From: Nitrospirota bacterium | GTDB lineage: Bacteria > Nitrospirota > Thermodesulfovibrionia > Thermodesulfovibrionales > Dissulfurispiraceae | Length of the DNA: 64,000 nucleotides | Reading direction: 5' to 3' | NCBI GenBank assembly: GCA_963710375.1 | Contig: CAVPZX010000003.1 | Location: 96,001-160,000, forward strand | In this document: positions 39,264-63,986 of the stretch, one piece after another | Position numbering within the stretch: position 1 is the stretch's first letter | How the letters are laid out: the number at the start of each line of letters is the position of its first letter | The notes under the pieces: generated by a model | Told to the model about the DNA's origin: nothing | The model's input: only the letters and a program-made list of their open reading frames with translations | Databases searched by the model: none | Made by a program: the position numbers and the translations under genes

Positions 39264-39304
39264 ATTGCAGATACTAAATACTAAAGAGGGGGAATTTTCA
39301 GACA

Positions 39305-40723
39305 GTGAGCGGCGATGAAAAAAGCAAGAGTATAGTTGACAGGATTTGGGATTTATTTTCTTCCATAAAGCTTGCGGTGGTAGTTTTCACCATTATCTCG
39401 GCCACCTCTATCGTGGGCACCGTAATTGAACAACAAGCCGAACCTGAGCAGAATATAAAACTGCTGGCAAAGTTTGTAGGTGTGGATTTTGCTCCAACTG
39501 CCTTTCGCATATTGGATACGCTGGGTTTTACCGATATGTTCCGCTCCTGGTGGTTCATGGCCCTACTGTTCATATTCACGGCTAATCTGGTCATCTGTTC
39601 TTTTGAGAGACTTCCCAAGATATGGAAGCTTGTCAAGGAGCCGGTCAAGCCTGTAACAGCTGAACGGTTAAATGCCCTGTCGATAAAACGGGAGATTATT
39701 TTAAAAGAGAAAGTTGACAAAGCCGCAGAGCATGCCGGGGCTGTACTGAAGAGGAATGGATTCAGGGCCGGCGAGAGGAAAGAGGACAACGGGGTCCAGT
39801 TATACGCTGAAAAGGGCAGATACAGCAGGCTTGGAGTATACATTACACATCTGAGCATACTGCTGATATTGGGTGGAGCGGTAATAGGGATGATTTTCGG
39901 GTTCAATGGCTCGCTTAATTTACCGGAAGGGATGTCATCCGTTGTAGCCTATAAGAGCAGCGGAATGCAGATACCGCTGGGGTTTGAGGTCCGGTGCGAT
40001 AATTTCAATGTTTCATTTTACGACAATACTGATACTCCCAAATCATATAAAAGCTGGCTGACTATAATAGAGAGCGGTAAGGAAGTAAAGGGAAAGGTGA
40101 TAGATGTGAACAACCCATTACAGCATAAAGGGATTACATTTTATCAGGCCAGTTACGGGTATGCTCCGTCGAGGAATTCGATATTTAAATTCAGCGTAAC
40201 ATCGAATGCCGGGACAAGAGGAGATGTGAATGTTAAATTTGGAGAACCGTTCACGATACCCGGGACAGCAGTGACCGGGAAAGTTATTGACTTTAGTCCT
40301 GCAATCGGTATGGACGAGTCCGGGAAGCTGTATACGTATGCGGAAATGATGAATAACCCGGCAGCATTTGTGGAATTTACAGAGAACGGGAAAATGAAAT
40401 ACCGGCAGTGGATACTGGTGCGGTTACCGCAGACATGGAAGGTGGCGGATGGGACAGTTGAGTTCAAGCATTTATGGGGAGCACAGTATACCGGATTGCA
40501 GGTGAGGAAAGACCCTGGAGTATGGCTTGTCTATCTGGGGTGCATGGTTATGGCCATGGGACTGTATACCGCATTTTTCATGGGACATAGCAGGGTATGG
40601 ATATGGGTGAGGGAAGACAAGGGCGGAGCAAAGGTTACGATAGCCGGGTCAGCGAATAAAAATAAGATCTCTTTTGAACAGAAGATAGATAAAATGACAA
40701 AAGAAGTAAGCAGTAAGCAGTAG
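39305..40723 (+). CDS. resB: cytochrome c biogenesis protein ResB/Ccs1 (System II)
   Basis: FSSIKLA, GTVIEQ, SWWF, HLSILLIL.G, VNNPL..KG..FYQASY, TGLQV.KDPG. Confidence 0.93.
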   Translation: MSGDEKSKSIVDRIWDLFSSIKLAVVVFTIISATSIVGTVIEQQAEPEQNIKLLAKFVGVDFAPTAFRILDTLGFTDMFRSWWFMALLFIFTANLVICSFERLPKIWKLVKEPVKPVTAERLNALSIKREIILKEKVDKAAEHAGAVLKRNGFRAGERKEDNGVQLYAEKGRYSRLGVYITHLSILLILGGAVIGMIFGFNGSLNLPEGMSSVVAYKSSGMQIPLGFEVRCDNFNVSFYDNTDTPKSYKSWLTIIESGKEVKGKVIDVNNPLQHKGITFYQASYGYAPSRNSIFKFSVTSNAGTRGDVNVKFGEPFTIPGTAVTGKVIDFSPAIGMDESGKLYTYAEMMNNPAAFVEFTENGKMKYRQWILVRLPQTWKVADGTVEFKHLWGAQYTGLQVRKDPGVWLVYLGCMVMAMGLYTAFFMGHSRVWIWVREDKGGAKVTIAGSANKNKISFEQKIDKMTKEVSSKQ

Positions 40724-40739
40724 GCAAAGGAGGTTATAC

Positions 40740-41825
40740 ATGGACAGTTCTCAGTTTTTCGGCATAGCGAGCATTGCGTATATACTGGCAATGGTTGCGT
40801 ATATAGCGTATCTGGCATTCAAGAATTCCGTGGTCGGGGTTATCGCGACAACAATAACAGTGGTTGGATTTATCTCGCATACAATAGCATTTATTCTGCG
40901 TTGGAAAGAGTTTTACGAAATCGGCCAAATGGGGATACTGAGAGCGATACCCCTTACGAACCTCTATGAATCGCTGATATTCTTTGTCTGGTGCGTGATA
41001 CTGGCGTATCTGATCATCGAGTGGAAATACAAGAACCGGTCGTTCGGAGCTTTTATCACCCCCATCGCGGGAATGGCGCTGGCGTTTATCGACATATCGG
41101 GGATGGATAAAAATATACACCCTCTGATACCTGCGCTTCAGAGCAACTGGCTGCTGGCGCATGTAACAATGAGTTTTCTCTCCTATGCAGCCTTTGCCAT
41201 ATCCTTTGCCACATCCATGATGTACCTGATTATTACGACTGAAGACAAAAAAAGCGCTCCTTATATTTTCTGGACGATTGCCTTGGGAGTATTTGTTTCG
41301 GTGTTTCTGGCCATGGGCATAGATTTTTTAGTATTCAAAGTTGCGATGAGTTCACCGGAATCGTTCATAAAGAGCTACCTGTTCAAGGCTACTTACAGGA
41401 ACAGTTCAGGGGCGGTATCGCTCGTCAGTTATTTAGGGACGGCTGTTTTTATCTTCGTAATCTGGAAGTACGGCTATTTATTAAGAAACGTTATAACATC
41501 GTTCTCTATCTCACAGGATCTGCTTGATGACCTGACATATAAGAGTGTAGCAGTGGGGTTTCCGATATTCACACTTGGCGGACTGATATTCGGTGCGGTA
41601 TGGGCAGACCAGGCGTGGGGCAGGTATTGGAGCTGGGACCCGAAAGAGACATGGTCATTGATAACGTGGTTTGTATATGCTTTTTATCTGCACGCGAGGT
41701 TTTTAAGAGGCTGGAGGGGCAGGAGGATAGCGGTAGTTGCGGTCGTGGGATTTGTCTGCACGGTCTTCACCTACCTGGGTGTTAACCTTCTGCTGAGCGG
41801 CCTGCATTCATATGGGGGAGGATAA
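40740..41825 (+). CDS. ccsA: cytochrome c biogenesis protein CcsA/ResC (System II)
   Basis: PLTNLYES, PALQSNWL..HV, GAVWA..AWG.YWSWDPKETW (WWD), GLHSY. Confidence 0.95.
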   Translation: MDSSQFFGIASIAYILAMVAYIAYLAFKNSVVGVIATTITVVGFISHTIAFILRWKEFYEIGQMGILRAIPLTNLYESLIFFVWCVILAYLIIEWKYKNRSFGAFITPIAGMALAFIDISGMDKNIHPLIPALQSNWLLAHVTMSFLSYAAFAISFATSMMYLIITTEDKKSAPYIFWTIALGVFVSVFLAMGIDFLVFKVAMSSPESFIKSYLFKATYRNSSGAVSLVSYLGTAVFIFVIWKYGYLLRNVITSFSISQDLLDDLTYKSVAVGFPIFTLGGLIFGAVWADQAWGRYWSWDPKETWSLITWFVYAFYLHARFLRGWRGRRIAVVAVVGFVCTVFTYLGVNLLLSGLHSYGGG

Positions 41826-41903
41826 AAGGCAAAGTTAAGGCTAAGGTTAAGGTTAAGCAAGGTTTCTTGTTTTTTCCTTAACCTTAACCTTGACCTCAAC
41901 CTT
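41826..41903. repeat. inverted (AAGGTT)n / (AACCTT)n hexamer array
   Basis: AAGTTAAGGCTAAGGTTAAGGTTAAG ... CCTTAACCTTAACCTTGACCTCAACCTT; same family as 9008-9145. Confidence 0.85.
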
Positions 41904-41930
41904 CTTTTATTATGAGATTTTCAGAGGAGG

Positions 41931-49419: not shown

Positions 49420-49493
49420 AGATGATGACAACAGCTATTTATCAGGAACACATAACTCTACTTAAACACTGAGAGAGCCGGCGTATCAAAGGG

Positions 49494-50011
49494 TCATACG
49501 AATTCGATTCCAGCCCGGTACATGTTGTTTTCGATAAGGATTGCGTTTCTCACTATACCGGTCTTATAATCGATCCCCTCTTTAACAGCGTCAAATCTGA
49601 TCGTAGAGCCGGGTCTTAAAGGATAACCGGTATAAATGCCCATTCCTGCTTTACTGATATCAACTATGTGCCCGTTCTGATGGAGAGTTTCGACGTTACC
49701 GATGCAGTACACAATCGCTTTGGAATACACTGCTCGCTCAATGCGCCTGCGTTCGTCCGCGGGTGTCTTTCCGTATATGGCGGCATCGGCAGAAGGGGGG
49801 AATGCTGTGCCGCTTTCCACAATTCCGTGTACGATTGCCTTTAGATACATGAGTTCAAAGGGGTCCCTGGGTGAAAAGATAGACATTTTCCTCTATTAGT
49901 TCCTTGAACCTGTCGTCAATGCATGAGACCGACATGGCCATATTTTTGCTTTCAGGCGACAGCCTCCTTAATATTCATCATTACATCAATAAATACCAGC
50001 ATCTTATTCAT
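49494..50011 (-). pseudogene. degenerate REC-PilZ copy (REC largely deleted; PilZ intact)
   Basis: Paralog of 50254-50940; most of the REC N-half, including the phospho-Asp, is missing, plus frameshifts; RRIER and DISKAG retained. Confidence 0.75.
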
Positions 50012-50023
50012 CGCATATTTGCT

Positions 50024-50039
50024 TGCAATAACAATACCA
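50024..50039 (-). promoter_or_regulatory. sigma54 (-24/-12) promoter
   Basis: TGGTAT-TGTTA-TTGCA on the minus strand, GG-N10-GC. Confidence 0.75.
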
Positions 50040-50137
50040 TTGCAGGGAGAAATAATAAGTCTTCAACAATGTTGTTTTAAATTAATATGTTACCGAAAAT
50101 CTGATAGCGCACGTAACCATTCCCACATTTGCGCATT

Positions 50138-50173
50138 CGGTGGAATCGCTAAACAGTAATGGTGTTTTTACCA
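50138..50173. promoter_or_regulatory. paired upstream activator site
   Basis: CGGTGGAATCGCTA-N8-TGGTGTTTTTACCA; recurs at 51068, 54313, 56701. Confidence 0.7.
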
Positions 50174-50253
50174 ACACAGTGGATCTGAGGAAGTGATATT
50201 GCGATTAAAATGCTGTAGACACCAACATTAGAGAGAGCCAAGGTGTCAAAGGG

Positions 50254-50940
50254 TCATACGAATTCGATTCCAGCCCGGTACATATTGTTATTGATCAGGA
50301 CCGTGTTTCTTACTATCCCAGTGTTATAATCGATCCCTTCTTTAACCGCGTCAAATCTTACCACAGACCCGGGTTTTACAGGATAATCTGTATGAATGCT
50401 CATTCCCGCATCACTGATATCAACTATATGCCCGTTCTGATTGAGTATTTCGACGTCATCCAGGCAGTTTACCTTATACATGATAGCTTTGGAATACGCT
50501 GTACGCTCAATGCACCTGCAGTTATCCGCGGGCGTCTTTCCGTATGTGGCGGCGTAACCGGCAGAATGAGGGAATGCTGTGCCGCTTTCCACAATTTGGT
50601 GTGCGATTGCCTTTACATGCATGAGTTCAAAGGGTTTTGGGATGAAAAGATAGGCATTTTTCTCTATCAGTTCTTTTAACCTGTCGTCAATGCACGAGGC
50701 CGACATGACGAGTATTTTGCTTTCAGGCGACAGCTCCTTAATCTTCATCATTACATCCACACCATGCATATCGGGAAGACACAGATCGAGAAAAGAGAGG
50801 TTGTAAAAACAGCGGCGGCTCTCTTCTACGGCATCTGAACCGTTGTTGACTGTTTTTACTTCCATCCCATCATTCTGGAGTGTTTTCGCCAGAGAATACA
50901 GGATTAATGGTTCATCATCTGCGATCAGTATTTTTTTCAT
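50254..50940 (-). CDS. response regulator with C-terminal PilZ domain
   Basis: ILIADDE, FLD..LP, MSA, KPF; RCIER (RxxxR) and DISDAG (DxSxxG). Confidence 0.88.
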   Translation of the reverse strand: MKKILIADDEPLILYSLAKTLQNDGMEVKTVNNGSDAVEESRRCFYNLSFLDLCLPDMHGVDVMMKIKELSPESKILVMSASCIDDRLKELIEKNAYLFIPKPFELMHVKAIAHQIVESGTAFPHSAGYAATYGKTPADNCRCIERTAYSKAIMYKVNCLDDVEILNQNGHIVDISDAGMSIHTDYPVKPGSVVRFDAVKEGIDYNTGIVRNTVLINNNMYRAGIEFV

Positions 50941-50954
50941 AGTATTCTTTTCTT

Positions 50955-50970
50955 TGCAATAACGATACCA
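50955..50970 (-). promoter_or_regulatory. sigma54 (-24/-12) promoter
   Basis: TGGTAT-CGTTA-TTGCA on the minus strand. Confidence 0.75.
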
Positions 50971-51067
50971 TGGCTGGAAGAAATAATAAGTCATCAACAA
51001 TATTCTTTCAAAATAATAGGTTACTCAAAATCTGATAGAGCACGTATCAATTCACCGTTTGGATATT

Positions 51068-51103
51068 TGGTTTAATTGCTAAACAGTAGTGGTATTTTTT
51101 CCA
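51068..51103. promoter_or_regulatory. paired upstream activator site
   Basis: TGGTTTAATTGCTA-N8-TGGTATTTTTTCCA. Confidence 0.65.
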
Positions 51104-51210
51104 ACACCGTGGCCCTGAGAAAATGATATCGCGATGAAAATGCTGTAGACACCCAAATTAAATGTTATAGTAATTGACGCGGTTATAGCAGGTTTTTTGG
51201 AATACATTTT

Positions 51211-53652
51211 ATGGGGAAAAAAAGTAAAAAACGAGTCGATGAGAGCAATTTAATCCGGTCTGATAATACATCTGCCTCGCATGAATCTTCCGGTCCGCAG
51301 TCATTGGCTAAGAACACCTTCGCTTCTAAAGCGCCTGCTGTTGGTGTCCATATAGCATGCCTGGTTTTTTTCATCATCATAATTTATTCCAATACCCTCA
51401 ATGCTCCGTTTCAGTGGGATGAGAGTTTCTTTATTGTCGATAATCCAATTATCAAAAACCTCCATTATTTCACAAGCCCGGCGACTGCAAAAGGGTTTAA
51501 GCTTTACACTGCTCTCATAAATAGATATGTCGGGTATCTCACCTTTGCCCTCAACTACAGGGTGCACGGCTTATCCGTGACCGGCTGCCATATCGTCAAT
51601 ATCGCTATCCATATCGCTAACTCCGTGCTGGTGTATTTATTTGTTTTAATCACATTCAGAACTCCGTTTTTCACTAAAACGGTGAATGGTGAAGAAGTGA
51701 AAGGTGAAGAGAACGTGAATGGTGAATGGGTGAATAGTGAATTAAAACCAGAAAAAAAGTCTTTCACTATTCGCGATTCACTATTCACTATTCACCATTC
51801 ACAGTCTTTAAACGATTCACAGTCTTTCATTGCTTTTTTCTCCGCGGCCATATTTGCAGTTCATCCTATACAGATAGAGGCAGTGACCTATGTGTTCCAG
51901 CGGTTTGCCTCTCTTGTGACATTTTTCTATCTGCTTTCTCTGGTAGCGTATACAAAATCAAGGCTGATGGCGGAAGGCGAATGGCGAAAGGGAAAAGGCA
52001 ATTTCGGGAGCGTCTTTCGCCTTCAGTCGTCTACTGTTTGGTTCTACATCGTTGCCTTAATTTCAGCTATTCTCGCCATGAAGACAAAGGAGAATGCCTT
52101 TACGTTGCCTATTGTGATCGTGTTGTATGAATTCTGTTTCTTCAGTCCTTCTCCCCGTGTTCCCGTGTCCCGGCGTCTCCGTTATCTTATCCCCATAGTC
52201 TTAACGCTAGGGATTATACCGCTTACTCTTATCAGTCTGACCGGGACTCATAACCTTGACCCCGGGGCATATGGGGCCAGTGAGTTTCCGCGGTGGGAAT
52301 ATTTTTTCACACAGTTCAGGGTCATTGTCACCTACCTGCGTCTGCTGTTCGTTCCTGTAAACCAAAATCTTGATTACGACTATCCCCTGTTTACATCTTT
52401 CTTCGACCCACATGTAATAGCGTCATTTCTGTTTCTCTCAGCGCTTTTTGTACTGGGTATATACATGATAACAGGCAATAGGCATTGGGCAATAGGCAAT
52501 AGGACGAAAGCTGAAAGTAAAGCAAACAGTTCACGATTCACGATTCACGATTCACGGTCTTTCAGGTTAATCGGTTTCGGGATACTATGGTTTTTTATTA
52601 CACTTTCGGTTGAGTCAAGCATTATACCGTTGGCGATGATTATAACTGAATACCGTGTGTATCTGCCCTCGGTTGGGATTATCATGAGTGTAGTTACTGG
52701 GGCTTTTATGCTAAAAGAAAGGCTGCGTGCCTCCCGGCTATCTATTGTTGGTTCACAAAAGTCCGGAAAGATTATAATGGGTATCTTAGCCCTTATACTT
52801 GTAGTTCTGTCAGTTGCAACCTATATGCGCAACGAAGTGTGGGGTGACGGCATAAGGCTATGGGAGGACACCGCCAGGAAATCCCCTGCCAAGGCACGTG
52901 CGTATTTTGCTCTTGGCAATATCTACAAAGATCGTAACATGCCTGATAAGGCAATAGAAAACTATCTGATCGCTATTAAGCTGAAACCGGACTATGTGGA
53001 GGCATATAAAAGTCTTGGCACCACCTACAAAGATCGTAACATGCCTGATAAGGCAATAGAAAACTATCTGACCGCCATTAAGCTGAAACCGGACGATGCA
53101 GATGCGCACGTTTATCTCGGTATCGAATATAAATCTCTCAACATGAATGATAAAGCTATGGAGCAGTATCTGGTTGCTATTAAAATGGAACCTAATAATG
53201 ATAAAGCGCATAACAATCTTGGCATTATCTATCAGGATATTAATATGACTGACAAGGCTATAGAGCAGTATCTTATTGCTATCAGGCTGAATCCGGATGT
53301 AGCGGAAACACATTATAATCTTGGACTTATTTATCAGGCGTCTAACCTGTATGACAAGGCCGTGGACCAGTATCTCATAGCTATCAAGCTAAAACCGGGG
53401 CTAGCTCAAGCCCATTTTAATCTTGGCAATGCCTATCAGGCCCTTAATATGATTGATAAGGCTATAGAACAATATTCGATTGCCATCAGGTTAAAACCAC
53501 AAGGTTACGCATATCCTCATTTCAATCTTGGGCTCCTCTACTATAAGATGGGGCAAACAGGAAAGGCGCGCCAGGAATTAACGGCTGGATTGATGATAAA
53601 GCCGGATGTCCAATGGGCACAACAATTACTAAAATCGATCCCGTCAGACTGA
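51211..53652 (+). CDS. TMTC-like GT-C membrane glycosyltransferase with C-terminal TPR repeats
   Basis: YSNTL..PF.WDE, H.VN..IH..N, FAVHP...EAV.Y..QR, KE.A..LP, EYR.YLPS, RN.VW....LW; about 8 TPRs. Confidence 0.85.
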   Translation: MGKKSKKRVDESNLIRSDNTSASHESSGPQSLAKNTFASKAPAVGVHIACLVFFIIIIYSNTLNAPFQWDESFFIVDNPIIKNLHYFTSPATAKGFKLYTALINRYVGYLTFALNYRVHGLSVTGCHIVNIAIHIANSVLVYLFVLITFRTPFFTKTVNGEEVKGEENVNGEWVNSELKPEKKSFTIRDSLFTIHHSQSLNDSQSFIAFFSAAIFAVHPIQIEAVTYVFQRFASLVTFFYLLSLVAYTKSRLMAEGEWRKGKGNFGSVFRLQSSTVWFYIVALISAILAMKTKENAFTLPIVIVLYEFCFFSPSPRVPVSRRLRYLIPIVLTLGIIPLTLISLTGTHNLDPGAYGASEFPRWEYFFTQFRVIVTYLRLLFVPVNQNLDYDYPLFTSFFDPHVIASFLFLSALFVLGIYMITGNRHWAIGNRTKAESKANSSRFTIHDSRSFRLIGFGILWFFITLSVESSIIPLAMIITEYRVYLPSVGIIMSVVTGAFMLKERLRASRLSIVGSQKSGKIIMGILALILVVLSVATYMRNEVWGDGIRLWEDTARKSPAKARAYFALGNIYKDRNMPDKAIENYLIAIKLKPDYVEAYKSLGTTYKDRNMPDKAIENYLTAIKLKPDDADAHVYLGIEYKSLNMNDKAMEQYLVAIKMEPNNDKAHNNLGIIYQDINMTDKAIEQYLIAIRLNPDVAETHYNLGLIYQASNLYDKAVDQYLIAIKLKPGLAQAHFNLGNAYQALNMIDKAIEQYSIAIRLKPQGYAYPHFNLGLLYYKMGQTGKARQELTAGLMIKPDVQWAQQLLKSIPSD
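51681..51802. repeat. in-frame palindromic GTGAATR / YATTCAC heptamer insert
   Basis: GGTGAATGGTGAA...GTGAATAGTGAA then TTCACTATTCGCGATTCACTATTCACTATTCACCATTCAC. Confidence 0.85.
52468..52557. repeat. in-frame heptamer insert (GGCAATA)n + (TTCACGA)n
   Basis: ATAACAGGCAATAGGCATTGGGCAATAGGCAATAGG ... TTCACGATTCACGATTCACGATTCACG. Confidence 0.85.
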
Positions 53653-54477: not shown

Positions 54478-54954
54478 ATGGCTGAAAATATACAAGCATA
54501 CGACACCATGATCACCAACCCACCCTTGTTGATCGGCGAGGACCAGCCATATATAGAAAATACCGATAGACAGAAATACCGAAAATCATCTTTGTCCGAT
54601 GATCAATCGTATGACATTCTCAAACAATTGCTCCATGTAATGAGAACAGACCGGCCTTTTGTCGATCCGGAACTCACCCTTCCGAAGCTTTCGAGCAGGC
54701 TTTCTGTATCTACCCATCACCTGTCACAAGTACTTAACGGAACCTTAAGAAAGAATTTTTATCACTTTGTCAATGAATACCGCACAAGGGAAGCCGGGAG
54801 GCTTTTGTTCTCTCCTGAATCCAGCCACTTATCGATCCTTGGCATCGCTATGGAGGCGGGATTTAACTCCAAGAACGCCTTCTATTCGGCCTTCAAAAAA
54901 CATACTGGGATGACCCCTTCACAATTCAGGCAACACAGGAGAAACGCTGACTAG
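54478..54954 (+). CDS. AraC-family regulator (DNA-binding domain only)
   Basis: DPELTL..LS..L....HHLSQVLN, NFY.FVN.YR, IAMEAGFNSK..FY.AFKK.TG.TPSQFR; GGAGG RBS. Confidence 0.92.
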   Translation: MAENIQAYDTMITNPPLLIGEDQPYIENTDRQKYRKSSLSDDQSYDILKQLLHVMRTDRPFVDPELTLPKLSSRLSVSTHHLSQVLNGTLRKNFYHFVNEYRTREAGRLLFSPESSHLSILGIAMEAGFNSKNAFYSAFKKHTGMTPSQFRQHRRNAD

Positions 54955-55183
54955 GCGGAAGATCCACTATCACATAGAAGCCTGTAATTGAGCGGTTTTA
55001 TCCTTTCAGCTGAAACTGCTTAGCTATCACAACACATTGTAACTCTTCAGAAAAGCTGTCCCTTCCTATAGGATAGGACGACAAACCTCCTCAGATCTCT
55101 GTATTTTAATTGCAAATTAAAACTACAAGGCGACGGCGTTACCGGCTTATAACCAACAAGCACAAAAAGGATGGAGGCTTGCA

Positions 55184-56572
55184 ATGAAAGGATCAAAACT
55201 TTTAATGGTGATCGCGGCGACAACTGTGGTGACACTCGGTTTAAGCGGCATCTCCTACGCATTCCATGACGGCAGCGTAGCTTATTGCGACGGTTGCCAT
55301 ACCATGCACAATGCGCAGGGTTCGACCCCGATGCAAGGTAACAGCGGCGCTGCGGGGAAGGGAAAATCAAACGGTGTGCAGTTTACCGGTAATCTCTTCC
55401 TGCTCCAGGGAAGCGATCAGAGCTCGACCTGTCTTAACTGCCATGGATCAACGAGTGCCGGCATTTACTATGAATACACGATTGGTGCATCGACAGCCAC
55501 TGTTCCACTCAACTTCACTCCGGGTGGTGACTTTGGCTGGCTCCAGATCGTTCCTGGCAACGGTTCTAGTGCCGGGCAGCTTTACAGAAGAGGTCACAAC
55601 ATCGTCGCCGTTGACTATAGCTTGACCGCATCACCGGTGTTCACGACCGCCCCGGGTTCAAATACAGTAAATGCTTATCCCGCTAGTAATTTCCACTGCT
55701 CAAGCTGCCATGACCCTCACGGCACATACAGGCACACGGGAGGAGATCCAGGCGTCAGTAGTGATATTAAAAGCTCTGTCTTTACGAGCGGCGGCGCAGG
55801 CGTGCAGACCATTGGTTCAGGCTCTTATGGTCAAACCGCTGCAGGTCAAGGCGCCACAGGTACTGAGGCAGTAGGCGTTTACAGACTTCTTGCAGGTGCC
55901 AAATACTTGCCTGCATCTGTTTCTACTACAGCATCAGCTTTTGTTAACGATGCTCCCATAGCAGAGGCCCCCAGTTCCTACAACTCATCGGAAGGCGTTT
56001 TCGGTACTACGAGTACTTCCGCAGGTTTGGGCGGCGCTACTGCTGAGCTCATAGTGTCCTATGGCTCCGGCATGTCGGAGTGGTGTGCAAACTGCCATGG
56101 CGCTATTCTTCAGGGCGGCGGCTCGATGACCAATTTTATCCATCCTGCAGGAAAAGGTGCGAATCTCGGCGCAGCTACTCTCGGCGCCCAGACGCTTGCT
56201 GCGAATTACAATAGCTATATCGGGTCTGGCAATATGACGGGTACTAATGTATATACTTCGCTGATCCCGGTAGAGAATGGTTCGATAACTACAGGTGCTT
56301 CTCAATTCGGCGGTATTGCACCGACTGTTACCGGAAACAGCAACGTGATGTGCCTCACCTGCCACAGGGCACATGCTTCAGCCTGGCAGAACATGACGAG
56401 ATGGGACAACACTACCGAGCTTATTACGAATAACACCGGGTATGCTCAGGGTCCAATCATAACCTACAACTACACCACGGCCCAGTTCCCTGCTGCCTAC
56501 AACGGCAGGCCGTATACTGCATTCGTAGCAAACCAGCGATTGCTCTGTAATAAGTGCCACGCAAAAGACTGA
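55184..56572 (+). CDS. OmcS-like hexaheme c-type cytochrome (copy 1)
   Basis: Signal peptide then FHDGSVAYCDGCHTMH, LLQG..QSSTCLNCH, TPGGDFGW, GHNIVA.DY, CSSCHDPHG, GMSEWCANCH, CLTCHRAHAS, LCNKCHAKD. Confidence 0.93.
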   Translation: MKGSKLLMVIAATTVVTLGLSGISYAFHDGSVAYCDGCHTMHNAQGSTPMQGNSGAAGKGKSNGVQFTGNLFLLQGSDQSSTCLNCHGSTSAGIYYEYTIGASTATVPLNFTPGGDFGWLQIVPGNGSSAGQLYRRGHNIVAVDYSLTASPVFTTAPGSNTVNAYPASNFHCSSCHDPHGTYRHTGGDPGVSSDIKSSVFTSGGAGVQTIGSGSYGQTAAGQGATGTEAVGVYRLLAGAKYLPASVSTTASAFVNDAPIAEAPSSYNSSEGVFGTTSTSAGLGGATAELIVSYGSGMSEWCANCHGAILQGGGSMTNFIHPAGKGANLGAATLGAQTLAANYNSYIGSGNMTGTNVYTSLIPVENGSITTGASQFGGIAPTVTGNSNVMCLTCHRAHASAWQNMTRWDNTTELITNNTGYAQGPIITYNYTTAQFPAAYNGRPYTAFVANQRLLCNKCHAKD

Positions 56573-56608
56573 TTGTTAGCCCTTAGTTATTCAATGAGGT
56601 AAAATGAG

Positions 56609-56637
56609 ATGCCGGTCCTTACGGACCGGCATTTTTT
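56609..56637 (+). terminator. intrinsic terminator
   Basis: ATGCCGGTCC-TTAC-GGACCGGCAT followed by TTTTT. Confidence 0.9.
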
Positions 56638-56700
56638 AGTGCTCCACCTTTTTGTTCAGCTTTACACAGCTATCTCCAGTCACTTCTCACGTGTCTTTAC

Positions 56701-56736
56701 TGGTGAAACCGCTTACCAGACCTGGTGGATTTACCG
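56701..56736. promoter_or_regulatory. paired upstream activator site
   Basis: TGGTGAAACCGCTT-N8-TGGTGGATTTACCG. Confidence 0.72.
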
Positions 56737-56811
56737 GTCCAATAGGGCATGGCATACCTGCAATGTGATAATAATCATTACATATCAATGACATAAATAA
56801 TTATCGCGAGC

Positions 56812-56827
56812 TGGTACAAACATTGCT
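56812..56827 (+). promoter_or_regulatory. sigma54 (-24/-12) promoter
   Basis: TGGTAC-AAACA-TTGCT. Confidence 0.8.
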
Positions 56828-56847
56828 TTCTATAGATTTCGTTTAAC

Positions 56848-57807
56848 ATGAAAAGAAAACTACTAAACAAAACTCATCTAATCCTTTTTTCAGCGTTCAT
56901 CCTGGCAATCGCCTTAATGCCGGTGAAGGTCCTGGCAGCAAGGGGTTCGTATCTTTATAGTCTTTCCAATTTTGATGGTATCGCGCCGTTTAACTGGGTG
57001 CGGATGCATATTGATGATGCTACTGGAGAAGTCTACGTCGCTGATCCGGCAACTCAATCCATCGTAATTTTTAATAATGTCGGCATGCAAATCTATGATT
57101 TCGACACTAGTGAGTTCGGCAGGGTTATGGATTTCGCGGTAGACAATGAGGGCAATTTCCTGATTTTAACATCTCAGTATGGCTCTGCTGCCACTCTCAC
57201 GAAATGCAACTACCGCGGCGAATTTGTTTCGAGGACCGAATTCAAAGGCATTCCGCCCGGAATCGCATCGAACTTTTCCCCAAATCGTTTTTTCTACAAA
57301 AATAACCGCTTTTACCTCGCAAGCGATGGAGCGATGAAAGTCGTTGTAACCGACATAAACGGTATTTTCGAGTCAAGTTACGATCTTAAATCGATGCTTA
57401 AATTGGATGAGAAGACACTGCAGTCCAGCACAGGCATTTTCGGTCTCACGGTCGATAATGCCGGCAGGATACTCTTCACCATTCCCTCTGCATTTTCAGT
57501 GTATATAGTATCTCCCGACGGCACATGGACGTCTTTTGGCCAGCACGGCAGTACTCCCGGGAAATTCAATATTGTATCCGGGATTGCCGAGGACGATAAA
57601 GGGAACATATATGTAACCGACAAGCTCAAATGCGCGGTCATGGTCTTTGACCGGAACTATAACTTCAAGACAGAGTTCGGGTACAGAGGGTCAGCTAAGG
57701 ATAATTTGGTTGTCCCAGATGACCTTGCGGTCGATAAAAGCGGCAAGGTATATGTAAGTCAATCGAGGAACCGCGGCGTAAGTGTTTTTCATGTGGATAT
57801 TGACTAA
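56848..57807 (+). CDS. secreted NHL-repeat beta-propeller protein
   Basis: GEVYVAD, FG..G..PGKF....GIA.D..GNIYVTD, P.DLAVD..GKVYVS. Confidence 0.9.
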   Translation: MKRKLLNKTHLILFSAFILAIALMPVKVLAARGSYLYSLSNFDGIAPFNWVRMHIDDATGEVYVADPATQSIVIFNNVGMQIYDFDTSEFGRVMDFAVDNEGNFLILTSQYGSAATLTKCNYRGEFVSRTEFKGIPPGIASNFSPNRFFYKNNRFYLASDGAMKVVVTDINGIFESSYDLKSMLKLDEKTLQSSTGIFGLTVDNAGRILFTIPSAFSVYIVSPDGTWTSFGQHGSTPGKFNIVSGIAEDDKGNIYVTDKLKCAVMVFDRNYNFKTEFGYRGSAKDNLVVPDDLAVDKSGKVYVSQSRNRGVSVFHVDID

Positions 57808-57923
57808 TGCAGCAGGTGACCACGCAGCTTGTGTAAGGAGGTGACCGCACAGAAGGAAGATAAGCAGTAAAAATACGTAGTAAGCAGTTAGTGATTGATA
57901 CCGGTTTTACCGGTAATAAAAAC

Positions 57924-58040
57924 CAATCCTCTGTAAAAGGTAAACCCATCGTAAGGTGGGGGCACAAAGTCAACGGGTCCCTGTTCAGCCCATATGTAAG
58001 GGACGGCCGGATTGCCGGAGTCAAAAAAAGTGGAGGATTG
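57924..58040 (+). ncRNA. GEMM-I / c-di-GMP-I class riboswitch with anti-RBS platform
   Basis: GGTAAACCCATC-GTAA-GGTGGGGGCACAAAG (P2 with GNRA loop), CGGGTCCCT...AGGGACGGCCGGATTGCC (P3), P1 CTCTG/CGGAG. Confidence 0.9.
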
Positions 58041-58042
58041 CA

Positions 58043-59425
58043 ATGAAAGGAATCAAAGTTTTATTTGTTATCATGGCAGCGGCCCTGATAACACTTGGCT
58101 TAGGCAGTACTTCTTACGCATTCCATGACGGCGGCGTCGCAGTTTGCGACAGCTGCCATACTATGCACAATGCGCAGGGTACAACGCCGATGCAAGGTAA
58201 CAGCGTTTCAGGTTATGGAAAATCAAATGGTGTGCAGTTTACCGGTAATCCATTCCTGCTCCAGGGAAGCGATCAAAGCTCCACCTGTCTGAACTGCCAT
58301 GGAGCAACTACTACCGGCTCTTACCATGAATACACGCTTGGCGCAGCGACAGCTACTGTTCCACTCAACTATACTCCGGGTGGTGACTTTGGCTGGCTCC
58401 AGATCGTTCCCGCCAACGGTACTAGTTCCGGGCAGAATTACAGAAGAGGTCACAACATAGTTGCAGTGGACTACGGATTGTCCGCATCACCGGTCTTCAC
58501 GTCAGCCCCGGGCGCAAATACAGCAAATGCATATCCCGCAAGCAATTTCTACTGCTCAAGCTGCCATGATCCTCACGGCACATACAGGCACACAGGAGGA
58601 GATCCGGCCGTCAATAGTGATATCAAAAGCTCTGTCTTTACGAGCGGCGGCGCAGGCGTGCAGACCATAGGATCAGGCTCTTATGGTCAAACCGCTACAG
58701 GTCAAGGCGCCACAGGTAGTGAGGCAGTAGGCGTTTACAGACTTCTTGCAGGTGCGAAATATTTGCCTGCATCCGTTGCGATTTCAGCATCAGCTTTTGT
58801 TAACGATTCCCCCATAGCAGAGGCTCCCAGCACCTACAATGTATCGGAAGGCGTTTTCGGCACTACGAGCGGTACCAAAGGTGCCGGCGGCGCCACTGCT
58901 GAGCTTATAGTGTCCTATGGCTCCGGCATGTCGGAGTGGTGTGGAAACTGCCATGGCGCTATTCTTCAGGGCGCCACAATGGGCAATTTTATCCATCCTG
59001 CAGGAGCAGCTGCGACTCTCGGCACAACGACAGTCGGCTCCCAGACGCTTGCTGCGAATTATAATAGCTATATCGGGTCTGGCAATTTGTCCGGTACTAA
59101 TGTATATACTTCGCTGATTCCAGTAGAGAATGGTTCGATAACTACAGGTGCTTCTAAATTTACCGGTATTGCTCCGACTGTTAGCGGAACCAGCAACGTA
59201 ATGTGCCTCACCTGCCACAGGGCGCATGCTTCAGGATGGCAGAACATGACAAGATGGGACAACACTACAGAGATGATTACGAATACCACCGGGTATGCTG
59301 CGGGTTATACCCCAATCTACAACTACACCACGACCCAGTACCAGGCTGCTTACAACGGCAGGCCGTATGGTGCATTCGTAGCAAACCAGCGTTCACTCTG
59401 TAATAAGTGCCACGCAAAAGACTAA
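58043..59425 (+). CDS. OmcS-like hexaheme c-type cytochrome (copy 2)
   Basis: FHDGGVAVCDSCHTMH, CLNCH, CSSCHDPHG, GMSEWCGNCH, CLTCHRAHASG, LCNKCHAKD; GGAGG RBS. Confidence 0.93.
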   Translation: MKGIKVLFVIMAAALITLGLGSTSYAFHDGGVAVCDSCHTMHNAQGTTPMQGNSVSGYGKSNGVQFTGNPFLLQGSDQSSTCLNCHGATTTGSYHEYTLGAATATVPLNYTPGGDFGWLQIVPANGTSSGQNYRRGHNIVAVDYGLSASPVFTSAPGANTANAYPASNFYCSSCHDPHGTYRHTGGDPAVNSDIKSSVFTSGGAGVQTIGSGSYGQTATGQGATGSEAVGVYRLLAGAKYLPASVAISASAFVNDSPIAEAPSTYNVSEGVFGTTSGTKGAGGATAELIVSYGSGMSEWCGNCHGAILQGATMGNFIHPAGAAATLGTTTVGSQTLAANYNSYIGSGNLSGTNVYTSLIPVENGSITTGASKFTGIAPTVSGTSNVMCLTCHRAHASGWQNMTRWDNTTEMITNTTGYAAGYTPIYNYTTTQYQAAYNGRPYGAFVANQRSLCNKCHAKD

Positions 59426-59452: not shown

Positions 59453-59490
59453 AAGAAAAGAGGCCGGCAGCCGCCGGCCTCTTTTCTTTT
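59453..59490 (+). terminator. intrinsic (bidirectional-type) terminator
   Basis: AAGAAAAGAGGCCGGC-AGCC-GCCGGCCTCTTTTCTT. Confidence 0.9.
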
Positions 59491-59589
59491 TATCTTGTCC
59501 TGTATTGAATTATTACTGTTTTCTATTTTAGTATGTACCGTGATAGCGTATATCTTTATATGTACTTTAATTTAAGGGGGGGCATACTG

Positions 59590-61017
59590 GTGAAAAAATC
59601 ACTGGGCATAGCACTTTTAATCTTGCTTTTTATGGCAGGGTGTGAGTCAGTGAACACTCAGGTGAAGCCGGCGCTTGAGAATGAGGGGGAAGTGTTCGTA
59701 TATATCGCATCATTTCCTCAGGAGGCGGACAGGCTTACCGTCGAAATTGAGAGCGTTACCGCTGTGCGTAACGACGGCGCAGAGTTCCCCCTTACGCTTA
59801 ATTTTGTAACACTGAAAGGAAGCGACCTGAAGAGACAACGCTTCCTGGCTTCCGGCCGGCTGCCGCCGGGTCATTATACGGGCCTGTCCATAAAGACGAA
59901 GAGCGCGAAAGTGGCTGCTGAGGAGGGAGAAGCAGCGTTGCTCGTACCGCCCGAGCCTGTGAAGAACGAATTCTCTTTTGAGGTGACAAGGAAAAGAGCA
60001 CTCCTTCTCTCCCTTCTTTATCAGCCTTCCAAGTCCGTGCTGGAAGGCTTCACGTTCAGGCCGGTCTTCACGATCTCTATCCCGAGTGCGCCGCCAGTCA
60101 ACCTTATCGGTTATGTAACGAACAGCGGCGCCAATACCATTACGGTTTTTGATAAGCAGTCAGGGCTGGTAAGAAGCGTTATTGCAACAGGTGAGCGGCC
60201 AATGGGCATGGCCCTCGACCAGACTTTGCGTAAGGCCTATGTCGCTTTTGAGGGTGAAGATGCCGTGGGTATCATTGACCTGTTGTCCGGCACGATTGTA
60301 AACAGGATCTACCTCAGCGGAGGCGACATGCCCTGTGAATTGGCGCTCACCCCCGACCAGCAGTTCCTGTTAACGGTGAACACAGGTTCACAGACTGTCA
60401 GCATTATCAATACGCAATCCATGTTCGAAACAGCGAGGGTGCCTGTCGGACAAGGACCTCATTCAATAATTATCAACAGGACCGGCAGCAGGGCATATGT
60501 CTTCAACTCCATTTCGAACACAATATCGATCATTAATATTGCTGCCTGGTCATCGGGACGGCCTACTACTGCCCAGGCGGTTCAGACTGTCAGTACAGAG
60601 CCGGGTCCCATGACCGGCCAGTTCAGCAGCAGGGGAGACAAACTCTATGTGGTCCAGGAGCGCTCGCTATATATTACTGTACGGGATCCGGCCTCTAACG
60701 CTCTGCTAAACAGAATATACATGGGTACCGGAGGCAGGACGATCAAAGTGGACCCTAATACAAATATGCTCTATGTGGCGCCTGCCGGCGGAACAGATAT
60801 CGAGATCTATGACCCGTTCTCACTGATTGCCGGCTATTTCATGCCTATGGAAGGAGAAGTTGTTTCTATGACAATAGACAATGACGACAACACCTTATGC
60901 GCTGTGGTTCCCGAAAAGAGAATGGTGAAGATCATCAATCTCACGAGCAGGAAAGTGATCTCTGAGATGGACGTCGATGTCAACCCGTACTGGGTGGACG
61001 TAATGGGCGAACGGTAG
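59590..61017 (+). CDS. lipoprotein with N-terminal beta-sandwich and YVTN/YncE beta-propeller
   Basis: GTG start, lipobox FMAGC; YVTNSG.NTI.V.D, G..P.G, V.VG..P repeats. Confidence 0.88.
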   Translation: MKKSLGIALLILLFMAGCESVNTQVKPALENEGEVFVYIASFPQEADRLTVEIESVTAVRNDGAEFPLTLNFVTLKGSDLKRQRFLASGRLPPGHYTGLSIKTKSAKVAAEEGEAALLVPPEPVKNEFSFEVTRKRALLLSLLYQPSKSVLEGFTFRPVFTISIPSAPPVNLIGYVTNSGANTITVFDKQSGLVRSVIATGERPMGMALDQTLRKAYVAFEGEDAVGIIDLLSGTIVNRIYLSGGDMPCELALTPDQQFLLTVNTGSQTVSIINTQSMFETARVPVGQGPHSIIINRTGSRAYVFNSISNTISIINIAAWSSGRPTTAQAVQTVSTEPGPMTGQFSSRGDKLYVVQERSLYITVRDPASNALLNRIYMGTGGRTIKVDPNTNMLYVAPAGGTDIEIYDPFSLIAGYFMPMEGEVVSMTIDNDDNTLCAVVPEKRMVKIINLTSRKVISEMDVDVNPYWVDVMGER

Positions 61018-61034: not shown

Positions 61035-63347
61035 ATGTCAAGACTTTCACTGTTATTTTTTTTAGTGTGTGCCGCTGCGGTGATATATACGGAGGCGTTT
61101 AGTGGAAGAGCCTGTGCAGACGATATATCGGGCTATGCGGAACTGGACTATTCACATTCCAACCAGAAGACCGACAACGGAAACGGAAACGTTTCCACGC
61201 AGAAAACAGATGATGTCACACAGCGATATAACCTTTCGCTAACTAAGCTGCTTTATCCCAACCTTAAGTTTTTTGCAAACGGTATTTTTGAGAAGGATAT
61301 GGCATCTACCGTAGACGAAACCGGCAAGACAAATTCAACGACGACAAACATTCAGCCGGTCGTCAGCCTTACTTTAGGCACCCCGGTAATCGTGGCCGGG
61401 GCCACATATAACAGGCTCCAGATTAATACGCAGTCCTCAGGCGCCTCTCAGACCCTTATCAACGAAAATTACAGTGGTTCGCTCGGCTTAAGGCCGGAAG
61501 GGTTGCCGTCTTTCGACATCAATGAACAAATGACCAGGACTTATGACCCGGCGCATGTCGTTGAGAACCTGATAACGGACCGGCTGTCAGTGGGTTCAAG
61601 GTTTAGTCCCGTGAAGGGTCTTGATCTGGGTTATCAGTTCGGCTATACCGATACTAATGACAAGTTGGCAGATGTTACCACGACGCAGATCAACAACAGC
61701 GGCACATTTTCGTATAATCATAGTTTTTGGGGTAACAGGGTTCGTTTTGGCGTAGACGGCAACGTCTCGCAGCTTCAAACTAAGGCGACCATCGGCGCTG
61801 CATCTACTACCGGCACAGCGCAGTTCAGCCAGTCAGCCGTTTCTGGTCTGTATGCAGCGGACTCGACAGCAGACTCTCCACTGGGCGTGGATGTGCCGCC
61901 CCATACACCCGTCAACGATGCAATGATTTCCACAACCTTCCTTATCAATGGCGGCGATTTCCTCGGCAATGTGGGAAAGCTGAATATCGGTTTTCCTCAG
62001 ACGAACCCGGCGGACAACAACCCCCGTGATGTAGGTCTGGCTTTTGCGCAACCCACGGAGCTGGATGCCATTTATGTAACCGTTAACCAGGATGTCAACA
62101 GCATAGCTACATCATATTCCTGGGATGTATACATAAGCTCCGATACCAATATCGGGCAAGGGGTGAGTCCCACTGCCACGCAGCAGTGGACCCTATACCA
62201 GCAGGGGGCAACTTTTATCTTTTCAGAGATCGACAACACTTTTAGAATTAGCTTCCAGAAGGTTACAGCTCAGTTCTTCAAGGTGGTAACAAAGCCCCTC
62301 AGTGTGCCTGCTTCTGTGCCTGGAGTGGATGTCAATAACATACTTATCAGCCAGGTACAGGCGTTCGATACGACCGCTCCTTCGAATGCTCCGACAAACA
62401 AGACCACCACGACTACACAGAACTACGACATGAACTTGAGGGTGAGGATCCTCAATAAGCCGGTGCTCTACTACGACCTGACGTCCTATTATTCAAACAC
62501 GTCAAATAAAGGTTCAGGCTTCGCAGTGGGTCACCCCAGCCTGTTGACATACTACATCTCCAACGGCCTGTCAGGGGCATACCAGTTCAGCAGGGTATTT
62601 TCGACATCCGCAAGGGTCGCACTAGAGGACAGCAAAGACCAGCAGGGCTCCGGCGTCACCCAGATCTACAATGCCGCGGTTACCGCGGCGCCCCTTGAAA
62701 CGTTGAGCCACTCTCTCGTCTTCAGCAGCAGGCGGGAATCGATCCACGGAGCGCCTCAAGACATCACCTCGCTATTCCTGACTAATCTTGCCCAACTATA
62801 TAAAGGGATCAATGCTGCCTTTTCAGGCGGATTAAACTGGACCACCCAGACAACGCTTCAGAAAAACACGAGTGAAACCCTTAATGCCACCCTCAGCTTC
62901 GTCCCTTACAAAGTCCTTACTATTAACAGTGATTTTACCTACACGAACTCAAAGACAACAGGAGGGAACATACCCAACGTGCTGACAACATCTGAACGAA
63001 GCGATCTGGCGTTTACATATACTCCATTCCCGACACTGAACTTTTTAGGGTCCATAGGCGTGTTTTCCGGGGCAAATGTCCAGTCGAGCACTATCGTAAA
63101 CTATGGCGTGAACTGGTCGCCGTTCCCCAACGGCACACTCCTGTTCAATTTCTCCTACATTGAGGATCTCAACTCTTTGAACAGTGTAAAAGATACAACG
63201 ATATTGCCTACTGTCAGATGGAACATCAGCCCTAACACATATTTGACAATTACCTATAATATCTTCAAGACTAAATCCGTCGTAACAAATGTGCCTCAGA
63301 ACACATCCCTCGACACTTTAAGTACGGTGCTCCATGTGTCATTCTGA
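61035..63347 (+). CDS. large outer-membrane beta-barrel protein with an inserted soluble domain
   Basis: Signal peptide, long runs of alternating amphipathic strands rich in S/T/N/Y, terminal LHVSF. Confidence 0.75.
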   Translation: MSRLSLLFFLVCAAAVIYTEAFSGRACADDISGYAELDYSHSNQKTDNGNGNVSTQKTDDVTQRYNLSLTKLLYPNLKFFANGIFEKDMASTVDETGKTNSTTTNIQPVVSLTLGTPVIVAGATYNRLQINTQSSGASQTLINENYSGSLGLRPEGLPSFDINEQMTRTYDPAHVVENLITDRLSVGSRFSPVKGLDLGYQFGYTDTNDKLADVTTTQINNSGTFSYNHSFWGNRVRFGVDGNVSQLQTKATIGAASTTGTAQFSQSAVSGLYAADSTADSPLGVDVPPHTPVNDAMISTTFLINGGDFLGNVGKLNIGFPQTNPADNNPRDVGLAFAQPTELDAIYVTVNQDVNSIATSYSWDVYISSDTNIGQGVSPTATQQWTLYQQGATFIFSEIDNTFRISFQKVTAQFFKVVTKPLSVPASVPGVDVNNILISQVQAFDTTAPSNAPTNKTTTTTQNYDMNLRVRILNKPVLYYDLTSYYSNTSNKGSGFAVGHPSLLTYYISNGLSGAYQFSRVFSTSARVALEDSKDQQGSGVTQIYNAAVTAAPLETLSHSLVFSSRRESIHGAPQDITSLFLTNLAQLYKGINAAFSGGLNWTTQTTLQKNTSETLNATLSFVPYKVLTINSDFTYTNSKTTGGNIPNVLTTSERSDLAFTYTPFPTLNFLGSIGVFSGANVQSSTIVNYGVNWSPFPNGTLLFNFSYIEDLNSLNSVKDTTILPTVRWNISPNTYLTITYNIFKTKSVVTNVPQNTSLDTLSTVLHVSF

Positions 63348-63404
63348 AGCCTGGGGGTATTAGTGGAAATAGTATCAAATAATATGTTAATGTTTGTTTT
63401 TCGT

Positions 63405-63986
63405 ATGAGTAATATCGTATCTAAAATCAAAGCGATTGTTCTGTTAGCAGTGCTATGCTTGCTGCCCTGCTGCGGCGGACGCAGTTCTGATTCCTATCGG
63501 GATCCGAATATGGATTTCGCCTCTATACGGACCGTGGCCGTGCTGCCCTTTGCAAATCTGTCAAAAGACCAATTGGCTGGTGAGAGGGTGAGGGACGTGT
63601 TTATTCCAATGCTGATGGAGAGCGGGAGCATCTATGTTTTGCCTCCTGGAGAAGTAGCCCGCGGACTCTCAAGGATCAATGTTGCCAATCCCACTGCTCC
63701 TGCTGTTGAAGAGGTGACGAAACTGGCCTCGATCCTGAGAGTGGATGCCGTTATCACAGGTTTGGTAAGGGAATACGGTGAATTACGGTCGGGAAACACA
63801 GAGGCAAATGTCATTTCGCTGAGCCTCGAAATGCTCGATGGACAGACAGGAAGGGTAGTGTGGGTCGCCTCTACCACTAAAGGGGGGATCACGTTGAAAG
63901 ACAGGCTCCTTGGCGGCGGCGGCAGCGCCATGAACGATGTGACCGAAAATGCAGTGAATGATCTGCTTGATAAGCTTTTTAAATAG
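63405..63986 (+). CDS. CsgG/GNA1162(DUF799)-like lipoprotein
   Basis: Lipobox LPCC; TVAVLPFANLS, L.VDAVITG.V.EY, L..LD..TG.VVW; start uncertain. Confidence 0.8.
   Translation: MSNIVSKIKAIVLLAVLCLLPCCGGRSSDSYRDPNMDFASIRTVAVLPFANLSKDQLAGERVRDVFIPMLMESGSIYVLPPGEVARGLSRINVANPTAPAVEEVTKLASILRVDAVITGLVREYGELRSGNTEANVISLSLEMLDGQTGRVVWVASTTKGGITLKDRLLGGGGSAMNDVTENAVNDLLDKLFK

Follow-up and report, generated by a model that had tools for sequence, protein, structure and literature searches.

Two genes for OmcS-family hexaheme cytochromes, p1 and p2, lie close together in a stretch of 64,000 nucleotides (the window) from a Nitrospirota bacterium (GenBank assembly GCA_963710375.1, contig CAVPZX010000003.1, positions 96,001 to 160,000). 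We consider it probable that both genes encode exported, heme-loaded, His-bridged wire subunits assembled via the adjacent osc-type (Osc) proteins, that p2 is controlled at translation by cyclic di-GMP (c-di-GMP) and that p1, a duplicate, is regulated in another way; of the two, p2 is likely the standard subunit. Coordinates are positions within the window unless prefixed C3 (the contig of the source genome, G000) or L (a fetched locus). For comparison we used a same-genus relative (G003) and three Geobacter-type genomes (G270, G280 and G281); p3 denotes a third OmcS-family paralog in G000.

The two OmcS-family genes and their control

Genes p1 (55184..56572, plus strand, 462 amino acids) and p2 (58043..59425, plus strand, 460 amino acids) are separated by a gene for an NHL propeller, and by gene order p2 holds the canonical omcS position. 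Each has a GGAGG ribosome-binding site (RBS) 6 nt 5′ of its ATG (55173..55177 and 58032..58036, both plus strand). Translation of p2 starts at the ATG of position 58043, which has a GGAGG of its own, and not at the GTG at 57956 listed for the open reading frame. In a search of PDB sequences the sole match of either protein was OmcS (6EF8/6NEF), aligned over chain residues 1–407 with E-values of 1.1e-71 (p1) and 5.6e-73 (p2), so that the family assignment made in a preliminary description of this DNA is confirmed over the full length. OmcS of G280 has in its mature form the 407 residues and the motifs of the PDB chain (6EF8). Residue 27 of p1 and p2 aligns with residue 1 of this chain; the mature start FH and the terminal CNKCHAKD are shared with OmcS, as had been claimed. 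A hydrophobic leader ending in SYA can be read from both sequences, and residues 1–26 of p1 are its putative signal peptide.

Both proteins contain six CxxCH motifs in the OmcS order and no further Cys, and all twelve His ligand positions are kept. We judged column conservation on 118 homologs (4604 of the 7997 scored candidates were homologs). The six distal His positions proposed earlier are occupied by His in 117–118 of the 118, the lone exception being a fragment. The difference YYEY versus YHEY, to which the preliminary description had drawn attention, lies where the alignment is variable (78 of 118 have His) and is unlikely to concern a heme ligand; we reject a Tyr-for-His ligand swap.

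A model of the mature p1 chain (AlphaFold2, 119-row alignment) had pLDDT 82 and pTM 0.85. It matched 6EF8 in Foldseek (E-value 6.9e-30, TM 0.75/0.80) and in VIA (Z 35.9, root-mean-square deviation 2.6 over 379 residues; next chain Z 4.0), the structural comparison that the preliminary description had called for. The model is a confirmation of the family and not of a filament, as AlphaFold has probably seen OmcS. The fold assignment of p2 rests on its 84% identity to p1; a single-sequence prediction for p2 gave pLDDT 28.

The His of the CHTMH motif (H42) is present in both proteins (55307–55309 in p1 and 58166–58168 in p2), as previously described. We take this residue to be the inter-subunit heme ligand in OmcS, a role that the preliminary description gave it and that Wang et al. 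in 2019 reportedly assigned to it. Our literature search found no passage naming which residue is the bridging His of OmcS. A passage of PMC6584659 counts twelve His ligands in OmcS, of which eleven are intra-subunit and one (for heme 505) comes from the neighbouring subunit.

A strong hairpin followed by a U-run stands after each gene, in line with the earlier statement that each copy has its own terminator: an intrinsic terminator at 56609..56637 after p1 (plus strand, fold z −5.75; the terminator scanner puts the same hairpin on the minus strand) and one at 59453..59493 after p2 (plus strand, fold z −7.64, also called by the scanner). None of 200 shuffles was as stable. Independent short-read runs (X1–X4) were used to check the window sequence. 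Contigs of X1 and X2 cover both copies, and a single X1 contig spans p1, the NHL gene and p2 with no difference from the window, which rules out an assembly artefact as the origin of the pair.

The leader of p2 contains a c-di-GMP-I (GEMM-I) riboswitch aptamer (57930..58020, plus strand; Rfam RF03167 with 59.9 bits and RF01051 with 58.5 bits, above the gathering score), which ends 22 nt before the ATG. A riboswitch is present between the NHL gene and omcS in G003, G270, G280 and G281 as well; passages of PMC1950547 and PMC6456294 link this RNA class to omcS (the omcST operon of Geobacter sulfurreducens, GEMM-Ib). The specificity base 20 is G in G000 (position 57939) and in G003 and A in the three Geobacter-type genomes. 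Because G at this base goes with c-di-GMP and A with cyclic GMP-AMP (cGAMP) according to passages of PMC6140456 and PMC6456294, c-di-GMP is the expected ligand of the p2 riboswitch; the A20 that marks GEMM-Ib is absent from the p2 leader. Among 12 GGDEF matches in G000 all ten full-length domains have the canonical Asp where cGAMP synthase has Ser (two partial matches were left unaligned), and a rough motif search of this genome found no Hypr-type GGDEF. The same rough search in 17 genomes found the Hypr-type motif in 6 of 10 genomes with G20 and in 6 of 7 with A20. A retuning of the riboswitch because the host has no cGAMP synthase is thus compatible with G000 but finds no support across the 17 genomes.

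No terminator was found between the aptamer and the p2 start. A strand at 57924..57932 (plus strand), which shares bases with the 5′ arm of riboswitch stem P1, is predicted to act as an anti-Shine-Dalgarno (anti-SD) sequence, pairing with 58032–58040 at a probability of 0.91–1.0. Without P1 a 9-bp helix is predicted to hide the p2 RBS; folding with P1 enforced frees its first three bases. The ‘strong RBS’ of the preliminary description therefore holds for both copies as a motif, while that of p2 would be masked unless the riboswitch folds. An anti-SD helix of 7–10 contiguous bp was found in all 17 omcS-type leaders, which were hand-picked from 22 distinct profile hits, and between G000 and G280 it has three compensatory changes. 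Sequence and folding together thus predict that p2 is switched on at translation by c-di-GMP. Our literature search, which fell short of the two most relevant papers, found no translational mechanism for the omcS riboswitch.

Three further observations concern riboswitches of this kind. A second c-di-GMP-I riboswitch of the G20 type (C3:198559-198637, L129) is followed by a terminator-like stem and a small uncharacterised gene. A short palindrome just 5′ of the p2 riboswitch (57900–57914), kept in G003, may serve as a regulator site or form a 5′ hairpin. A genome of the same taxonomic order (G249, locus L149) combines the A20 form of the omcS riboswitch with Hypr-type GGDEF motifs.

No riboswitch was detected before p1 by covariance-model search, even at E-values up to 1. 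Upstream of p1 lies an araC-family gene cut down to its DNA-binding part (54478..54954, plus strand; Pfam HTH_18 and comparison with the frames of relatives). In relatives the open frames are 355–432 amino acids long, and only their last 120–140 match anywhere in G000. An imperfect palindrome of 25 bp ending in GGACGAC (55058..55082, plus strand) is the likely operator or promoter element of the araC cassette: a similar copy (5 mismatches in 25) follows araC in three of three relatives, ahead of unrelated genes, and the element occurs once in G000 when up to 5 mismatches are allowed. A scan for sigma-70 promoters stayed at chance level (11 versus 10.8). By its leader, p1 likely answers to a different, riboswitch-free promoter. 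The suggestion in the preliminary description that the two proteins form alternative filaments gains support from the different regulatory elements ahead of each copy.

We propose the following sequence of events. Both proteins would be exported by Sec and receive heme from ResB/CcsA, and the Osc proteins would secrete and assemble them, with the His of CHTMH reaching across to ligate heme 5 in the next subunit; these steps are carried over from the family. Head-to-tail polymerisation would then yield conductive filaments. In the absence of ligand the strand 57924-57932 would pair with the p2 RBS; binding of c-di-GMP would fold P1 and expose the RBS at its first three bases. Two inputs could thus lead to wires of the same kind, mixed wires being possible when both are on, and the wires would carry respiratory electrons to minerals or partner cells.

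Divergence and origin of the two copies

The copies had been called near-identical. Their proteins are 82% identical (84% for the mature chains) and their genes share 1201 of 1380 nt (87%). The long identical DNA tracts reported earlier are not in excess of chance: the longest run is 44 bp against a mean of 46 in shuffled alignments (p 0.54), and the synonymous differences show no clustering (p 0.44). Patchy gene conversion between p1 and p2 is therefore not supported. The synonymous divergence (dS) of p1 and p2 is 0.28, near the values between G000 and G003 for seven island genes (0.30–0.40; two others have 0.62–0.68), and the duplication is therefore not strain-recent. In short, the origin by duplication that was proposed earlier stands and its very recent date does not.

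Sites informative for p1, p2 and the two G003 copies group by genome in 62 of 88 cases, with 11 and 15 of the 88 in support of the two cross-genome pairings. The cross-species pairings were rejected by the approximately unbiased (AU) test (p-AU 3e-5 and 9e-5), and with these results we reject an ancient orthologous pair common to G000 and G003. The two proteins are sisters in the protein tree (SH-aLRT 99); at the DNA level the p1/p2 fork stays open and the G003 pair is supported. By sequence, the duplication is lineage-specific. Whole-gene homogenisation is less likely than separate duplications in G000 and G003, which the different contexts of the second copies favour. The second copy of G003 is 115 kb from its cluster and carries an apparent 3′ end of the riboswitch. 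Upstream of the coding regions p1 and p2 share the RBS region only; the duplicate presumably carried just the RBS and the coding region, landed behind the araC cassette and then drifted faster in variable positions.

These data also bear on the idea that p1 and p2 are an obligate pair, alternating or co-assembling with distinct roles in one heteropolymer. The genes are neighbours, the mature proteins are 84% identical and their charge counts are the same, so that their interfaces are likely compatible, and G003 also keeps two copies. Against a fixed stoichiometry speak the separate terminators and the different leaders; moreover, the G003 pair arose separately and its members lie far apart in different contexts, while G281 has a single copy before its osc genes. 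We regard an obligate pair as very improbable.

Substitutions between p1 and p2 affect 1 of 135 conserved columns and 69 of 299 variable ones. The sole difference in a highly conserved column is G31S, a change in p1. The p1 branch is the longer one in the protein tree (0.11 versus 0.039), and private changes are in excess in p1 with three outgroups (33/15, 35/15 and 31/13 for p1/p2; p 0.007–0.013), though not significantly with two others (p 0.06 and 0.37). Values of dN/dS (nonsynonymous over synonymous divergence) are 0.36–0.52 for omcS pairs and 0.14–0.27 for other island genes. Taken with the truncated araC neighbour, such figures could mean that p2 is the sole working wire subunit and that selection has relaxed on p1, a redundant second copy with weak expression or none. 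Yet after a dS of 0.28 p1 has acquired no stop or frameshift, has kept 134 of the 135 conserved columns and retains 12 Cys, 12 His, the signal peptide, the RBS and the terminator intact; its dN/dS is well below 1, and a high dN/dS is general for surface cytochromes, which a passage of bioRxiv 2025.11.06.686851 reports as fast-evolving. A relaxed p1 is in our estimate unlikely, and we keep to the reading with two working subunits.

Duplication as such is common in this family. At least two full-length family genes were present in 27 of 73 surveyed loci, which vary in length and in some cases share a genome; in one Nitrospirota locus (L027) a tandem array comprises a fragment and five full-length genes of the omcS family, of which two are almost identical. 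The family is carried by 19 of 251 genomes of the host class, and a full-length member by 2 of 10 genomes of the host genus. The loci closest to p1 and p2 are from Nitrospirota (79–80%). Section 6 of bioRxiv 2025.11.06.686851 describes a lineage-specific omcS triplication in Geobacter bemidjiensis; the G000 duplication is a clean but ordinary example of a kind already known in the OmcS family.

Assembly cluster, island and third paralog

Downstream of p2 the window contains the beginning of an osc-type cluster, the omcS-companion cluster GSU2505-GSU2493 summarised in passages of PMC13194489 and bioRxiv 2025.11.06.686851. The gene between p1 and p2 (56848..57807, plus strand; Pfam NHL/DUF5128) encodes a six-bladed NHL propeller with 43% identity to its G280 counterpart, the gene before omcS in the Geobacter-type cluster. 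After p2 follow genes for an OscD-like YncE/YVTN beta-propeller lipoprotein (59533..61017, plus strand; Pfam YNCE, 41% to the G280 gene), an OscE-like large exported protein of 770 amino acids (61035..63347, plus strand; 35% over 727 amino acids to the G280 gene in the same position) and an OscF-like GNA1162-like lipoprotein (63363..63986, plus strand; domain match and G280 gene order). The OscE-like protein had no family match in Pfam or NCBIfam; its osc-cluster counterpart is described as a beta-barrel in a passage of PMC13712944. Beyond the window the cluster continues with a second GNA1162-like lipoprotein, a peptidyl-prolyl isomerase, 26-heme and 16-heme cytochromes and an NHL protein. 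From the OscD-like gene to the 26-heme one, and likewise for the NHL gene between p1 and p2, the G280 order is kept with 35–58% identity. The G280 stretch compared ends at the 26-heme gene; the 16-heme and last NHL genes were compared in G281, where all eight genes after p2 have matches. G000 thus has the NHL gene and the eight-gene block of an osc cluster.

A hexaheme gene of the GSU2501/OscC type stands directly 5′ of the block in 12 of 12 Geobacter carriers according to section 6 of bioRxiv 2025.11.06.686851. No separate OmcT/OscC-type gene was found before the block in G000, where p2 itself precedes it. The OmcS family has three members in G000, none of which groups with OscC in the tree. 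G003 has a further divergent paralog at the pre-block position.

Several points weigh against wires built of p1 and p2. Section 6 of bioRxiv 2025.11.06.686851 treats only OmcS itself as a known wire, with OmcT, OmcJ and GSU2501 as homologs without known function, and its authors caution that beyond the genus true wires cannot be told from sequence. OmcT and OscC of G280 also keep the CHTMH His; its retention is therefore no proof of polymerisation and at most necessary for it. The proteins are as near to OmcT (48%) as to OmcS (48.7% over 382 aligned mature positions), with OscC at 44%, and in the protein tree they form a clade of their own on a backbone without resolution; position and riboswitch favour OmcS orthology for p2. 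As to control, the model with enforced P1 still leaves six SD-side pairs; the anti-SD helix is conserved, yet outside its GGAGG core covariation falls short of significance (42 of 60 pairs versus 38.3 shuffled, p 0.09); and G20 does not track the absence of the Hypr-type motif. The araC gene before p1 has no sensor part, and p1 may be constitutive or silent. Finally, the excess rate of p1 is significant against 3 of 5 outgroups only and fits relaxed selection too.

Some of these points would suit proteins with the OmcS fold that stay monomeric or form short oligomers on the cell surface and relay electrons received from the periplasmic cytochromes with 26 and 16 hemes, a role that OmcT or OscC may have too. 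Three of the four G. sulfurreducens homologs have no shown filament (section 6 of bioRxiv 2025.11.06.686851), the insertions relative to OmcS could block stacking, and a passage of PMC6771412 argues that OmcS filaments are preparation-dependent. On the other hand, p2 holds the position and the riboswitch of omcS, and in a genome with no separate OscC/OmcT-like gene the assembly machinery has no His-complete candidates other than p1 and p2. A monomer would also leave one heme without a sixth ligand, only 11 His being intra-subunit (PMC6584659, in the passage on ligation). Such a relay seems to us improbable, and polymerising subunits remain the preferred reading.

The cluster belongs to an island of 33 kb (C3:137916-170939) between two copies of resB-ccsA (cytochrome c maturation system II; Pfam ResB and Cytochrom_C_asm). 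The left copy of this direct repeat is at 39282..41915 (plus strand) and the right one, at C3:170940-173573, closes the island. The copies match over 2634 bp at 99.66%. Discounting a window error leaves them identical over 2540 bp: none of the four runs X1–X4 has the lone internal mismatch (39337). Depth over resB-ccsA is about double in X1 and X3 (a rough guide), and the junction of the right copy was seen in X1 and X4; an assembly artefact is ruled out. Five of the six same-genus genomes examined (G002, G005, G006, G007 and G008) have ccsA followed directly by tsaD and no island there, and G003 has the island at this site with a single resB-ccsA. The repeat geometry suggests entry by a single crossover, and recombination between the repeats could excise the island as a loop or amplify it. 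The island does not stand out by foreign composition: deviations as large occur in 25 of 91 genome windows.

The third family gene, p3 (C3:169644-170912, equal to L001:11644-12912; assigned by family homology), keeps five distal His and has no CHTMH His. This His is absent in 81 of the 101 full-length nearest homologs of p3 (19 shorter ones of 120 were set aside from the count) and in 0 of 119 in the p2 set. The p3 protein, conserved in G003, is far more charged than p1 and p2, as part of a charged clade whose members mostly have no such His. It is not OscC, since the gene in the OscC position of G280 has the His and branches in another part of the tree. Among the 120 p3 homologs, 17 have only four CxxCH (255–351 amino acids; e.g. 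P0130, P0168 and P0182-P0185); many of these are near 300 amino acids, which may point to a natural tetraheme form and not to fragments.

One could join all this into a self-contained, switchable nanowire kit outside Geobacter. Here p1 and p2 would co-polymerise, the c-di-GMP switch and the araC-type promoter would tune the composition of the wire, and p3 would be the missing nucleator or end-piece of OmcS wires; the 33-kb island would have entered by a single crossover at resB-ccsA, would bring its own heme-attachment genes and would loop out or amplify via the 2.5-kb repeats. As a whole we hold this picture to be improbable.

The rest of the window and of the genome yielded several side observations. 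Two frameshifts, at 36749 (a ShlB-like gene) and 53901 (a TonB-C gene), are window errors absent from the short-read contigs; an anthranilate-synthase-like gene at 33910–35410 is in two pieces in same-genus genomes too, and its split looks natural. The segment 41931–49419 encodes a sulfatase-modifying factor, a phosphonate-binding protein, a kinase, a sigma-54 regulator and two c7-type hexaheme cytochromes; this module also follows tsaD in G007, a genome without omcS. At 49471–51160 there is a tandem partial duplication of a response-regulator/PilZ-like gene (83% DNA identity), shared with G003. The gene at 51211–53652, present in three copies here in G003 and in several elsewhere in G000, encodes a membrane protein with C-terminal tetratricopeptide repeats, as a guess a TMTC-like glycosyltransferase that could modify the Ser/Thr-rich subunits. 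A decaheme cytochrome beside an exported protein of 722 amino acids (L223:1129-4242) is a possible second electron exit route; we take its layout to resemble an MtrA/MtrB pair. Gene dsrA was not found in G000, which is 98.8% complete.

Comparison with known systems

The occurrence of omcS in Thermodesulfovibrionia (PMC8478452, in a passage on this class), omcS duplications and the omcS riboswitch are already in print, and the locus is therefore an example and not a discovery; a literature search, short of the two most relevant papers, found no study of the omcS cluster of this lineage. Its interest lies in questions stated as open elsewhere: which OmcS homologs form wires and why there are several per genome (section 6 of bioRxiv 2025.11.06.686851), and what starts or ends a cytochrome filament (a passage of PMC13712944). 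The locus offers a tidy test set, in which the two His-complete subunits are 84% alike, a single paralog is without the His and neither OmcT nor OscC confounds the picture, and it illustrates that omcS, its assembly genes and its riboswitch travel together across phyla.

With OmcS of G. sulfurreducens (GSU2504, PDB 6EF8/6NEF) both proteins share full-length homology, the order of the six CxxCH, the twelve His, the fold and both ends of the mature chain; p2 shares the upstream NHL gene and the riboswitch as well. They differ in identity (49%), in being ∼28 residues longer, with the Gly/Thr/Ser-rich insertions noted in the preliminary description, and in having far fewer charges (K+R 15 and D+E 19 versus 27 and 30 in OmcS). 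The p2 riboswitch is in the same position as that of omcST, has a closely similar sequence and likewise an anti-SD strand beside P1, but has G20 (c-di-GMP type) instead of the A20 of GEMM-Ib, in a genome where no Hypr-type GGDEF was found. The NHL gene and the eight downstream genes are in the order of the osc cluster GSU2505-GSU2493; in contrast to that cluster, G000 has nothing of the OmcT/OscC type ahead of oscD, a further omcS copy stands upstream, the paralog without the His lies past the cluster, and the whole island lies between duplicated resB-ccsA genes in a Nitrospirota host. Compared with the triplication in G. bemidjiensis, the duplication in G000 is in another phylum, and its copies have visibly different regulatory elements.

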